From assembly GCA_021613535.1 (NCBI GenBank), contig CP075497.1, forward strand, positions 9,948,585-10,012,584: a stretch of 64,000 bases of DNA. The letters run 5' to 3'. Each line of letters opens with the position of its first letter. Positions within the stretch are counted from its first letter, which is position 1. The stretch is from Adineta vaga. Lineage: Eukaryota > Animalia > Rotifera. The position numbers were made by a program, and so were the translations under genes. The notes under the pieces are model-generated. The model was not told the DNA's origin. It saw only the letters and a program-made list of their open reading frames with translations, and made no database searches. Shown here one piece after another: positions 38,566 through 62,238 of this stretch.

Positions 38566-41500
38566 TTATAAAGGATCAGGTGTTGTTGAAAGAATTTTTA
38601 AATTAAGTTCATATAATCGATGGCATACATCTGATATGGGTGGTGTTTGCTGAAGTATAACAAGCAGATCTAAATAAACAAAAGATTCGATAAGAAAATC
38701 ATCATGTTCATCATTAAACGTACTCGCTGTTGTATGCGTTTTTTTCAATGATTCATAAAGAATAGCAAGTGCAACGTCAATTTCATTCTGTTCATCGCCA
38801 AAATCATCCGGCCAAAGTGATCTTAAATGAAGTAAACGAACTATTTTTGTATAAACATAATCTTATCACTTACCTTGCTGATCGAAGATATTTAATTGCA
38901 TTTGAATATGTATTTGAATGTAAACATTGAAATATATAAGCAACTGCTGTATCACGATTTGGTAGATTGTTTGTTTCAATTGTTGGTTGATCTTCTTTAC
39001 CCGAACGAAGATCATTCAGAAAATCATTTAAACCATTACATGCAATAGTAAATTCCGATGAAAGATTTCGAATATTCATCAAGGGATCACGTGCAACTGA
39101 TAGTAAATTACTAATTAATTTCGAGTAACTTTCTGCTAATGTAATTACTTGAAAAAATAAATCTAAATTAATAAAAAACGAAATTTATAGTTGATAGATG
39201 TTCGTTTGAAAAAAAAAATAAAGCATGACACGGAAATCCGACGTTGATTTTTACATGTAAAATAGTGGGCGATCAGAACTTTGAAACTTATATCATGCAA
39301 CCGTGTTTGGAATCTTTTCATGTCCTATAATGTAGTAGGTACTTTTCTTCTGACAGAACGTCATATTGCTATCATAAATGAAATAGAATTCGATAGTATT
39401 ACCTATTATTATTTTATAGAATTTCAAAGTTTATTCTTTCATCTTTTTCCAATTGACTTTCATGTATAAGGAGTCATATTGACACGAAAATGAACCGTGA
39501 TGTAAAAGATAATTATAATTTGATTGGTCATAAATTCCTTACTGAAATGTATGTATGTTAGTTTTCTTTCTCTTTTTTTCTATATATAACTATTGAGAAT
39601 TAAACTTCGAAATAATATAGATTGACGTTTATAAATTTATAATGACATTTCAAGATATTCTTCTCAAATCTAGAATAGTCTGACATAATCTAATCCAAGC
39701 AAGTCGACACTCTAAGATGTAGCTTAACTTTAACAATGAAGTCGACAATATCGAATTATCAAAACAAAAAGAAACATGACTTATAACAAATCTTTTTACT
39801 CTTCATTCATCATGAATTTAAAAGAATATATAGACAACTAAAATAATACACTGTGCTACTGTTATAAATATAGAACATGATATAGATTGAGTTAGTGCGC
39901 AGTTGTTTTAATAGACATACATGCTCACAATTAGATATAAAATGACTTACTATAAAGATGTTTACACATATGAATTTTTTGTTCATTGGAAACGAATGTA
40001 TCATAACCACGTTCACCTAATGATTGTAATTTTAAATTTGATTTAATTGAATCTAAACAATCAATAGCTAAGGCTTTTTTTGAAATATAATTTGCATAAT
40101 TTTCATTTAATTCTGTTATAATTAATCGATGTTTGATTAACAATTGATTGATATTCATGATATTTTCATCAACAAAAACTAATGTACAATCAAGACTTTC
40201 CATTAAAACATTAAGCATATGACCTAGAAAATAAAATTGAAAATAAAGTAATCAATACAAGTAGAACAATAAATTCTAACCAAGTTGAGAAACCATTTGT
40301 CGAAAACGATTATCCATAGAAAGACAATGACATGTTTCATGAACAAATATTGATAATCTTCGTCGAATTTCCTTTAAAAATAAAATGACTCGGTAAATCA
40401 ATTCATTTATTGAATTCTTCTTACTTTAAATAAACGTCGAAATAATAAGAATGTTTTTACACTATCGGATGGATTGATTTCATCAATTAAATTTCTTGCA
40501 TGTGTTTGCCAAGCATCTTCAATATACTCATTATTCATCGTTACTACATGTAAAAGTCCAGTAGGATGATGATTATGAGAAACAGCTAGATCCGGCATAT
40601 CTTCCCTGAAAAAACAAAACAATGAATAATTAATAATTTTAGTTTGTTTTAGATGAACGTTTCTTAGAACAATGATAAGAGAAGCAGATATGAATAATTG
40701 ATATACAATAGGTGATAAGCAGAGATGATTTGCACAGATAGGAAACATACCGTGACCAGGATGTCCACGATTTACTCGGGGCTCTCCTTTTGCGTTTTTG
40801 TGGTTCTAGTCTATCTACCATATATGAGCTGTATAGATAAGAAAAATTGGTTTTTACATTTAGCAATACATGCGAAATTGGTGTTTTTTTAAACGAGCTA
40901 ATGCAAATCAATTTTAAAACATGTTGAATACTTACGAATTAATAGAAGCACCCGTTCTTTCACGTCCATTAGTTGGAGCTGTGGATATTGAATTTGTTGT
41001 TGTTGATGCATCCATAGCTGATGTAAATTCGTGCATATGTCTCGACGTATCCACAACCACATCAGTCATATGTGTAAATTCACTTGCACTTGGCTAAAAT
41101 AGAAAGTAATTCAAAATAAAGTATAGAAATAAAATCTATCAATCATCAATTGAACTTGTTACGAAACAAAAACAAAAAGAAGCTGGTTTATCATATGAAG
41201 CAGTAAGTTATTGCGATAGAGGCAAGAGATAGAATAGTGAAAAAGAAAAGGGTTGGAGTTTTGTGCAATGAAAGTTATGATAAGTAGACGAAAAGCAGAC
41301 AAAAGGTAAAAACAAAGAAAAATAATCAAATATAATGATATGCAAAACAACCTTGCGACTAGGTACTTTGCTTCCACTAGGACTAGTAAATGATGGTAAT
41401 TTTCCGCGAAGTTTCGATTTCATTCGATATGTATCAAACCATTCTCCAACTGTCGATAAATTTCGAAGTGTATTGCTTAAACTATTACGTCGTGGCTAAA

Positions 41501-44500
41501 GCGAATACGTATGATTAATAAGTGAAATCAAACAGATGAAAAGTAAGATATTCATCTTTTTTTGGTCCCCTTCTAAAGCTCTTTCATACCTCAGGATCAA
41601 CTGGTAATTGATTATCATCAAATGATATCATAGGAGCATCATCTTCATCACCAAAATCTTGTCCATCCGTGGTTATTGGATACATTTCATGAAGAGAATC
41701 CTACAAAGAACAAAAGAAAACAGTCATACAATCACATTTATGCGATTGATATACCTCATCATTTAAGAAATCGAATTGTTTTGATATAAATGTTTGATCA
41801 ACATTTTCCGATGTCATCGATTCTTTACTTGAACTTGGTAAACTACCCATGGGTGGTTGTTCTGCTAAATCACTTGTTTGACTGAAGACAACCTATTTGA
41901 AATAAAATATAATGTAATTAGAGAGTTTTGATTCTTCTATGTCACTTACACTTGCACTGCGATTTAATGGCAATCGTGATAAACCTGCTTGTTTACCACA
42001 TGCAAACATTAATGCAGTCAAACGTTCACGAGTTTTCATCTAAAGCAACGATGAAACGAATAAAAATAAACTAACCACTATATTGATCAAACCTGTGATT
42101 GAGCAGCATTTTGTTTCCAACTAGTTATATCGATTTCAGTCATTGTCATTCCTGCGCCAAGACATGTATGTCGACGGCGATTATTAGCACATGTTGATGC
42201 TGATAAAAATTTCAAAACATTATGATTTTGTTGTTCTTTATTCTTGATCGCAACCATAATATTTGATAAATTATATTCAATATCCAATGTTCGACCTATT
42301 ATGAAAATGTAAATGAAGTTATTCAAAGACATATATATATATATATATTCTTTTCGTTCCTCTCATGCGCATTCTGAGTACTATCAATATGAGCAATTAG
42401 GATATGTAGCACAAGAAGATTCATTCAAAGTTATGACAAAATTGTCTCTAATCTTTGGTTTCTATTTACCTGGTAATTCAATACTGCTCTTATGTGGTTC
42501 GAAAAAGTGAACTTCTCCCATTAATGAAGTCAATGGTGCTGTATTGTAATGACTATTCGATGTAATATGTTTCGGTGTTGATAATGTCGATGAACGTTGT
42601 ATTAATAATTTCAATGTTTTGGTTACTTCAATGCAATATTCAGTTTTATTTACATATTTACATAATGTTCGAACAAGTTCATTATTGAATAAAGCATAAT
42701 CATTCAAAGATTTCGTATCAGTTATTGTCACAAGATGATAGAAAATATCTAGGATAGATGTTTGTAAATATGTAGGTCCATTATCAAGTATTTCACATAA
42801 AAATCGAACCCAACTGATCGTTTCTTGAATATAAACATCAGTTAAATATTTTAAAATACATTTTGCCCATTGTGATGCTGTTGAATTGAATTTACCTTGT
42901 GCATATAATGACATAACTGCCGCTAGATTTGTTAATGTTGCACTATCTTCATGTTCATTGCATACTCGAGCTATTTGATCAGCTGCTTGAATACAAAGTA
43001 CATGTTGATTATCATAATTATACATCATATAAGGTAATAAGGCAATAACATTTATCGCTAATGAAGATTTATTTGTTGATATAAATGGTAATGTTAAAAT
43101 GTTTGTTAAACAACTTATCAATGTTATTGTCGATTCAAATGTTATCGATGATGTACAACCTTTTAAAACTAAAGATTGAACACCGGGAAATTGTTGCCAT
43201 TTAATTGTTTTAAGTATATTCATGATACGTTCAATATAATCACTTGTATTCAATTGTATTTTATTTATAATTGTAGTTAATAATTTTACGGATAATGTAA
43301 ATTCATATTCATAATCAGATTCAAGTAAACATATGCCAATCCAAAATAATTGTGCTAAAACAGTTTTTGCATCATCAATTGATGCTGCTAAAGTTTGTAC
43401 ATCATTTGTATTGGTTGATGTACCATTGTTTAATGAATGATTTGGAAAAAAAATCTGTTGTTGACCAACATTTTGTGCACTATGTGATCGTGTTAATGTG
43501 GATGTTGTTGATGAACAACTACGATTCGAATCTGGACTAAAACGTAAGGAATTTGCTTGTGGATCAGTTGGTTGAAGGAGAAAACCATTTGTAGTTGATA
43601 TACTTGGACAAATAGTTGTTGTTGAATGACCATTAGATAATGTTGACGATAGAATATTATTATTTCTTGGACTCGTTGGTGCTGTAGCCATACCAGAATT
43701 TGTAACGATAATTGCTAATTGATCACGGGATTGACGTTGAAATGTTCGAGAATGTTGTCGTCGATCTGTTGGGAATAACATATTATTTTGTAATGATTCA
43801 ATTTTATTCGTTAAGACAGAAGGATTGATTGTATGTGAATTGTTAATTTCTTTCGAAGGAGATAATTGTGGAATCGATGTTGAAAATAAACCATTGATTT
43901 GATTATATATTGAATCAATATTATAAGTTAAAGTTAACAATAATTCAGTTACATATCCTTGCATATCATCATTATTTTCAGCTACTGTTTCAACTAATCG
44001 AGAAAGAATATCGATTACCCAACGGAAATTTAATGGTAAACCTAATGCACGAATTATCTAAACAAAAACAGAATAACATGATTATCAATGAGCAAAATGT
44101 AAATCTACTTGTAATGATCGACCTGCATAATGTCGACTTGAACAACTTAATGTGATTCGTAATGCTAATTCCATCCAACGTTCTTCTAACATTGCTTGTG
44201 GTACACATGTACGAAATAGGCTAACAATCCATTGTACAAATGGTGTTAATTGTAATGCACTACGAATTGTATGCACTTGTGCTGTGATATCTTCATATGC
44301 CCAAAGAGGACAACCTTTTTTTGTATTTAAATATGCAATTAAACGTTGTACAACTTCTTCACGTGATAATGATGTTGAAGAAGTTGTTTCAGTAAATATT
44401 TCATTGTTTAAAGATGAAGAATTATCATTTAAACTATCCGTAAATAATGATTGAGAATTGACATGTATACCATTTGTATCACGTTCTTGACGAATTTTTG

Positions 44501-61861: not shown

Positions 61862-62238
61862 ACACTCTACAATTGAAAAGTACCCGCCATATTCTTCTAT
61901 TGTTGTACAAAGCGTTTCCATCGAAACGATTACAATGATAAATTCAAAGTCAGTCAAATGAAAAAGATTTCAATCTTCGTTAAAAGAATTATTGAAATAA
62001 ATAAAATTTGAGATTTGAAAATTTTTTAAACGATAAGACGGATTAGATGTCGCTAGTTGCCTACATGATCTTGAAACCGGTTGTATTCAGGAAGATAAGA
62101 GATAGAGAAAAAGACTTATTTGCAGTATATTTGTCAAAATAAGCAAAGACTATTACGTGTAATCTTCATTTTTGTTTCACTTTAAATACAAAAACAACAA
62201 TCAGTTTTTCGTACGTTTTTCTTTGAATATCGACAATC

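Follow-up and report, generated by a model that had tools for sequence, protein, structure and literature searches.

Spliced-leader (SL) operons have been described in nematodes (the SL2 type of C. elegans), tunicates (Ciona, Oikopleura) and chaetognaths, where co-oriented genes lie approximately 40–250 nt apart, typically about 100 nt, and a strong 3' splice acceptor precedes the ATG of the downstream gene. In chaetognaths, which are also gnathiferans, 18% of genes belong to operons, recognized by co-orientation, gaps below 250 bp and SL evidence (PMC12460157). SL trans-splicing is established in bdelloid rotifers (Pouchkina-Stantcheva and Tunnacliffe, 2005, as entered in the table of PMC2481426; also PMC7986045), with a single SL form listed for rotifers (PMC2481426), and rotifer operons are entered as "ND" in PMC2481426 and as "not reported" in PMC7986045. 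Ciliary regulons (RFX/X-box, FOXJ1) consist of dispersed genes that share promoter motifs, not of physical clusters. Finally, conserved microsynteny is found in compact genomes, where gene order and orientation are kept across unrelated functions and short intergenic DNA offers few breakpoint sites. Here we compare with these systems a locus of the bdelloid rotifer Adineta vaga (contig CP075497.1, positions 9,948,585 to 10,012,584), analyzed as one window of 64,000 nt, in whose own numbering all coordinates are given. The genes in question, a DZIP1-like gene, a WD40 two-propeller gene (WD), a coiled-coil gene (CC) and Furry, follow each other on the minus strand from 61828 down to 38566.

The original prediction had read this region as a tightly packed trio of cilium and cytoskeleton genes under shared regulation, possibly transcribed together and resolved by trans-splicing. 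We consider it probable, on balance, that these genes are ordinary neighbours with separate control regions in a compact and collinear genome. The short gaps would then follow from genome-wide compaction, and the conserved order from the general local collinearity of bdelloid genomes, not from selection for a cilium cluster.

The gap between DZIP1 and WD is 247 bp, that between WD and CC is 128 bp, and Furry starts 591 bp after CC, so that the previously given distances of about 250 and 590 bp are confirmed; their unusual tightness is not. As a yardstick we used 19 non-focal intergenic gaps from annotated bdelloid loci, which range from 37 to 4330 bp with the median of 625 bp. Both the 247-bp and the 591-bp gap fall below this median, and the tightest junction of the window, 59 bp, separates two unrelated housekeeping genes, LCMT1 and HRS. 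The spacing of the cluster is not exceptional in this compact genome. The window is AT-rich (approximately 30% GC), and its introns are of about 50 bp.

The genes do share one strand, as had been noted, but this is not special either, since at least eight consecutive genes are encoded on the minus strand (26560–61828): DZIP1, WD, CC, Furry, a CD225-like gene, a 230-aa gene, LCMT1 and HRS. Two cruder minus-strand gene models follow further on (18569–23792 and 2203–9776). The eight named genes also share one orientation in A. ricciae (loci L002 and L009), where the series of a CD225-like gene, a 233-aa gene, LCMT1 and HRS downstream of Furry is collinear with that of A. vaga.

Gene order was compared with loci from A. 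ricciae, A. steineri (contig L001), Rotaria sp. Silwood1 (L003) and Rotaria (L010). In A. ricciae, SID-1 (minus strand) is followed by DZIP1, WD, CC and Furry, with gaps of 236, 113 and 401 bp between the latter four. The same order is seen in Rotaria sp. Silwood1, with gaps of 723, 134 and 3204 bp. In the A. steineri contig SID-1 is followed by DZIP1 and, after 154 bp, by WD-CC, while Furry was not found by tblastn within 10 kb downstream of WD-CC. In Trichoplax and Capitella the WD orthologue adjoins neither DZIP1 nor Furry. The LCMT1-HRS pair of Rotaria has other upstream neighbours, with no Furry within 10 kb. Thus, the conservation of order holds in A. ricciae and Rotaria, fails for Furry in A. 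steineri and does not extend to the two other animals. As the conserved order spans functionally unrelated genes equally, it provides no argument for a cluster based on function. The locus resembles conserved microsynteny in this respect, with order and orientation kept in Adineta and partly in Rotaria.

A second assembly of Rotaria sp. Silwood1 (L004) retains intact WD and CC, together with a 474-aa fragment of DZIP1 and a 553-aa fragment of Furry, and an ABC transporter replaces the upstream SID-1. This may be a second copy that has been rearranged or is degenerating, or else a problem of assembly or annotation.

On the sequence evidence, we describe the region as four separate genes, and not three: DZIP1-like, WD, CC and Furry. 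Three window proteins are identical to A. vaga entries, namely I4U23_030402 (WD), I4U23_030401 (CC) and I4U23_030396 (LCMT1); the A. vaga genome paper counts 32,378 proteins. WD and CC exons were mapped exactly from the A. vaga proteins, and the exon models of DZIP1 and Furry come from a home-made splice-aware gene finder, whose output was split by hand. One of its models joined DZIP1, WD/CC and Furry into a single gene and was rejected, as splicing ran over stop codons.

The DZIP1-like gene occupies 57910–61828 on the minus strand, from the ATG at 61828 to the TAA stop at 57912–57910 (57914 in the original prediction), with the protein ending in GEESN; similarity in tblastn spans 57913–61828. 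The formerly proposed start at 61957 is merely the boundary of the open reading frame (ORF), and the sequence context of the ATG at 61828 is conserved among bdelloids. The window model carries the Dzip-like_N domain (PF13815, E = 7e-10) and a C2H2 finger, and the syntenic orthologues in L001, L002 and L003 carry both PF25977, the DZIP1 domain, and PF13815, which together place the gene in the DZIP1 family. The exon model is incomplete, with about 720 aa compared to 811–822 aa in the orthologues.

The WD gene (54372–57662, minus strand; I4U23_030402) encodes 857 aa in 12 exons from 57662 to 54375, followed by the stop codon at 54374–54372. Its annotated products have 851 aa in A. ricciae and 810–839 aa in three Rotaria species. 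The CC gene (52736–54243, minus strand; I4U23_030401) has seven exons from 54243 to 52739 and a TAA stop at 52738–52736; the mapped protein is 100% identical over its 341 aa and ends in KQSLK. The outer boundaries of the formerly single "WD40/coiled-coil gene", 57662 and 52736, are correct, but they enclose two genes 128 bp apart. The CC ORF (341–345 aa) is opened by the conserved ATGTCTCAAGC (ATGTCTAATGC in A. steineri), 113–136 bp past the WD stop, and the annotations of A. vaga, A. ricciae and several Rotaria treat CC as a gene of its own, with 341/345 aa in A. ricciae and Rotaria.

A single gene, with WD and CC fused into a protein of about 1170 aa across an intron of 130–150 nt, is very unlikely. 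It has been annotated in A. steineri as a 1168-aa model (L001:10001–14610) in which the conserved stop is spliced out, and GT..AG joins that keep the frame between WD and CC are available in A. vaga, A. steineri and Rotaria. However, the in-frame WD stop and the C-terminal tail before it, RQVSFxN[PS], are kept in A. vaga, A. ricciae and Rotaria as well as in the A. steineri genome itself. Enumeration of donors and acceptors yields GTTTCC and GTGTCT as candidate donors for the join, unlike the local GTAAG and GTATG donors, and in A. ricciae splicing to the strong acceptor would create a stop codon. Outside rotifers, WD orthologues (approximately 750–830 aa) cover the WD part alone and end after the propellers, and CC-like proteins stand alone in other phyla. 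Given the conserved stop, the atypical donors and the stop codon arising in A. ricciae, the A. steineri fusion is probably an annotation artefact.

Just downstream of CC the A. steineri contig also has a 149-aa gene (L001:15953–16654) with tblastn similarity to the CC protein; it may represent a partial copy of CC, duplicated in tandem, at the place where other species have Furry. Two introns of the A. vaga genes are unusually long compared to the usual 50 nt: the first CC intron (53851–54051, about 200 nt) and a WD intron (56051–56180, about 130 nt). The former is 0.68 identical to its A. ricciae counterpart, other introns being at about 0.5, so that a regulatory element or an alternative exon may be hidden there.

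Furry (38566–52144, minus strand) is an orthologue of Fry of approximately 3030 aa in more than 40 exons, the exon model being approximate. Window ORFs match the Pfam domains MOR2-PAG1_N, _mid and _C (PF14222, PF14228 and PF14225), and tblastn matches lead to the Furry proteins of A. ricciae and Rotaria, which are annotated with Fry_C as well. The previously proposed start and stop, 52144 and 38566, hold, as does the identity of Furry along with that of DZIP1. The start is an ATGATG at 52144, whose second ATG (52141) corresponds in alignment to the start codon of other species.

The functional composition of the locus gives little ground for a cilium cluster. DZIP1 proteins form a basal-body and ciliogenesis family, and Furry is a regulator of the cytoskeleton and morphogenesis. 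Together with the order DZIP1–WD–CC–Furry kept in A. ricciae and Rotaria, this is what speaks for genes of related function held together for shared regulation. Yet DZIP1 (PF13815/PF25977) is the only one of the four genes that can be called ciliary by homology, and the earlier statement that two of them are ciliary applies to DZIP1 alone. Searches of Pfam and PDB with the WD protein returned only generic WD and beta-propeller matches. Its relatives carry the name "uncharacterized WD repeat-containing protein alr3466-like" and form a metazoan family with members in molluscs, annelids, echinoderms, amphioxus, sharks, a cnidarian and placozoans. The CC protein has no match in Pfam or PDB, and an exhaustive HMMER search retrieved only fragments and approximately 12 distant uncharacterized coiled-coil proteins (263–376 aa, 24–33% identity) from scallops, amphioxus, a hemichordate, several fishes and a caecilian; a literature search for one of them, with the zebrafish-style name si:dkey-111f13.5, found no mention. 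As judged by these matches, neither WD nor CC is orthologous to a demonstrated ciliary or basal-body protein, and we do not count them in the ciliary gene set.

Regulatory signals do not favour a cilium cluster either. The locus resembles ciliary regulons in that it contains DZIP1, a member of the ciliogenesis gene set under common regulation in other animals. However, scanning for the RFX X-box (GTNRCC N0-3 RGYAAC) in its form with a 2-nt spacer produced no site in or near the cluster. The scan of the whole 64 kb with this form gave a single match with one mismatch, at 33211, which equals the chance expectation and is far from the cluster. Moreover, SID-1, the CD225-like gene, LCMT1 and HRS, none of them ciliary, are equally collinear, and as the tightest junction joins LCMT1 to HRS, tight packing is not tied to ciliary function. 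Given also that Furry no longer adjoins the other genes in A. steineri and lies 3.2 kb away in Rotaria, that the neighbourhood is absent from Trichoplax and Capitella, and that Furry has a conserved promoter-like region of its own, a functional cluster of DZIP1, WD and Furry kept for shared regulation seems very unlikely.

This promoter-like region lies at 52145–52300 (minus strand) and likely comprises the promoter and the 5' untranslated region (5'UTR) of Furry, as suggested by its conservation across species. In the 120 nt before the Furry ATG the mean column identity is 77% in the alignment of three species (A. vaga, A. ricciae and Rotaria), and the region contains ATTGG (52243–52239), CCAAT, a TGAnTCA site, TTATCACTATTTACATG (52190–52174) and TTATC-TATTTACAT. 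No splice acceptor was found near the Furry ATG in the upstream region of the aligned species. On the CC side of the gap, a canonical AATAAA, the presumable CC poly(A) signal (52637–52632, minus strand), follows the CC stop by approximately 100 nt, behind a conserved stretch of the 3'UTR, and occupies the same relative place in A. ricciae. The gap itself, at 591 bp, exceeds the 250-bp operon limit and varies from 401 bp in A. ricciae to 3204 bp in Rotaria sp. Silwood1. We place Furry outside any co-transcription unit of DZIP1, WD and CC, because of the promoter-like region, the variable gap and the adjacency lost in A. steineri.

The spacers upstream of WD and CC were aligned for four bdelloids (A. 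vaga, A. ricciae, A. steineri and Rotaria). In the DZIP1–WD spacer (57663–57909, minus strand) a noncoding block of 67 nt (57838–57772), including the palindrome TGTTAACA, is conserved in all four species; an ATTAAA inside it (57809–57804) is found in A. vaga only. Although the Rotaria spacer is extended by about 430 bp behind the DZIP1 stop, the block stays close to the WD ATG. This retained distance favours a 5' control element of WD over a 3' element of DZIP1. At the end of the spacer, 4 nt before the WD ATG, we observe a candidate (trans-)splice acceptor TTTCATATAG^ATCA (57676–57663, ^ marking the splice boundary), and the form TATAG^AT(C/T)A is common to A. vaga and A. ricciae.

The WD–CC spacer (54244–54371, minus strand) is held at 113–136 bp in the four species, which represent two bdelloid families. 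It contains the conserved blocks AGATCTCAGG (54354–54345) and GTGC..GCACTCTAAAA (54295–54276), and directly before the CC ATG at 54243 it ends in the acceptor TTTTTGTAG^ATAGAATAAC, 10 nt from the ATG and of the pattern TTTTT(A/G)TAG^AT...ATG. Motifs of this spacer do not recur beyond chance elsewhere in the 64-kb window. Neither AATAAA nor ATTAAA is conserved after the stops of DZIP1 or WD in the bdelloid comparison. The conserved blocks of both spacers may be promoters.

Upstream of DZIP1, an SID-1-like gene for a dsRNA channel (Pfam SID-1_RNA_chan) is encoded on the plus strand, head-to-head with DZIP1 (61829–62620). A. steineri, A. ricciae and one Rotaria assembly retain this divergent arrangement, with approximately 380–420 bp between the genes, and this suggests that the intergenic region is a shared bidirectional promoter region.

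Several observations weigh against fully separate control of the four genes. DZIP1–WD and WD–CC are co-oriented pairs with gaps below 250 bp, so that the chaetognath rule (PMC12460157) would class DZIP1–WD–CC as a candidate operon. Both spacers are better conserved than introns: identity to A. ricciae is 0.72 for the DZIP1–WD spacer compared to 0.56 for introns, and the WD–CC spacer has 0.60 with A. ricciae and 0.61 with A. steineri, compared to 0.56 and 0.42, respectively, for WD/CC introns and to 0.82 and 0.80 for coding regions. The narrow length of the WD–CC spacer, the lack of a conserved poly(A) hexamer after WD and the strong acceptor at its end fit co-transcription too. Finally, the WD and CC families share a broadly similar patchy distribution among animals, and hence a functional link between the two is possible; in Branchiostoma belcheri the relatives of WD and CC are found on scaffolds of different length.

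These features are the basis for a partial operon, in which WD and CC, possibly with DZIP1 upstream, would be transcribed as one pre-mRNA and resolved by SL trans-splicing, with Furry excluded. Bdelloids possess the necessary trans-splicing, pyrimidine-rich TAG acceptors are conserved 4–10 nt before the WD and CC ATGs, and operon-type architecture exists elsewhere in this window. However, similar acceptor-like sites are also seen upstream of DZIP1 and SID-1, both of which are first in line after the divergent intergenic region. Such sites thus mark trans-splicing generally and not operons. Besides, in Rotaria, where the gap is 723 bp, the DZIP1–WD block is positioned relative to the WD ATG rather than the DZIP1 stop, and a promoter fits this better; the WD–CC blocks could likewise be a compact promoter, and operons have not been reported from rotifers (PMC7986045). 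We regard the partial operon as rather doubtful, though worth consideration; a shared trans-spliced transcript may exist for WD–CC and, with lower likelihood, for DZIP1–WD. Of the trans-spliced polycistron initially proposed, the host phylum with an SL, the order kept across two families, the acceptors before WD and CC and the spacer conservation above that of introns all stand, but Furry, being independent, does not belong to it.

The clearest junction with the classical layout of an SL operon is found outside the cluster, between LCMT1 (30769–29789, minus strand; I4U23_030396) and HRS (HGS), to judge by its predicted signals. At this spacer of 59 nt (29730–29788, minus strand; junction sequence 29727–29794) the stop codon is embedded in GAATAAA, and a U-rich tract and TTTTTAG^ATTAAC follow before the HRS ATG at 29729. 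The length is 37 nt in A. ricciae (L009:10979–11021), 50 nt in Rotaria (L010:10979–11034) and 48 nt in the Logan contig L012 (1743–1799). In all four cases the stop lies inside GAATAAA, a U- or pyrimidine-rich tract follows, and TTTTTAG^AT(A/T)AA(C/T) (TTCTAG in L012) places the acceptor 6 nt before the HRS ATG. L012 is GC-richer, with LCMT1 79% identical, and retains HRS introns, which identifies it as genomic and not a transcript. In Brachionus no HRS is present within 648 nt downstream of LCMT1, and an older origin of the pair was rejected on the lack of this arrangement there.

The layout of LCMT1–HRS makes the general idea of rotifer operons more plausible. Similarity to the SL operons of other animals includes co-orientation, short distances and a strong acceptor before the downstream ATG in a phylum with a spliced leader, to which LCMT1–HRS adds the AAUAAA and the U-rich tract upstream of its acceptor. 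On the other hand, the junctions described here are known from genomic sequence, the DZIP1–WD and WD–CC blocks may be promoters, and Furry is outside. Conserved microsynteny accounts for order and orientation, but WD–CC and LCMT1–HRS are also held to narrow lengths with conserved signals, and plain collinearity needs neither. That bdelloids have genuine SL-resolved operons, namely DZIP1–WD–CC, or at least WD–CC, conserved between Adinetidae and Philodinidae, plus LCMT1–HRS, is a tentative proposal that we consider unlikely on these data.

The only Rfam match in the window is a complete 5S rRNA gene (15220–15338, plus strand; RF00001, 115.8 bits), which stands alone among protein-coding genes. 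In several animals with trans-splicing, genes for the SL RNA are found linked to 5S genes. The bdelloid SL, in the form GGCTTATTACAACTTACCAAGAG, has no copy in the window, and by this search no SL gene is present here; we know of no operon-specific rotifer SL. No recognizable leader was seen in the Logan contig L008, which encodes a distant CC relative, and a tandem-repeat scan of the window revealed nothing relevant.

Returning to ordinary neighbours with separate control, the following scheme may be proposed. DZIP1 would be transcribed from the divergent SID-1/DZIP1 intergenic region. WD would most likely rely on the block at 57838–57772, as a compact promoter of its own or at least as a 5' control element, and trans-splicing to the acceptor 4 nt ahead of the ATG would exchange its short 5' leader for the SL. 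CC may be driven from the 128-bp spacer, or else be co-transcribed with WD and trans-spliced 10 nt before its ATG, and its transcripts would end at the canonical AATAAA seen downstream. Furry would be transcribed independently from the conserved CCAAT-box promoter, whose conservation is observed and whose function is predicted.

The cilium-cluster framing falls, also with respect to the remaining genes, which are not known as ciliary; what is left are closely spaced A. vaga genes, four in number and all annotated, in a genome that is compact and locally collinear. One gene model is corrected as well, the WD-CC fusion of A. steineri being probably artefactual. At the same time, WD–CC (113–136 bp) and LCMT1–HRS (37–59 nt) have both length and signals conserved across bdelloid families, as in operon junctions. 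If co-transcription were true, Rotifera would have its first described operons and one more phylum would join the animals that possess them; rotifers would thereby be linked to the operon-rich chaetognaths, with a bearing on whether operons share an origin within Gnathifera.

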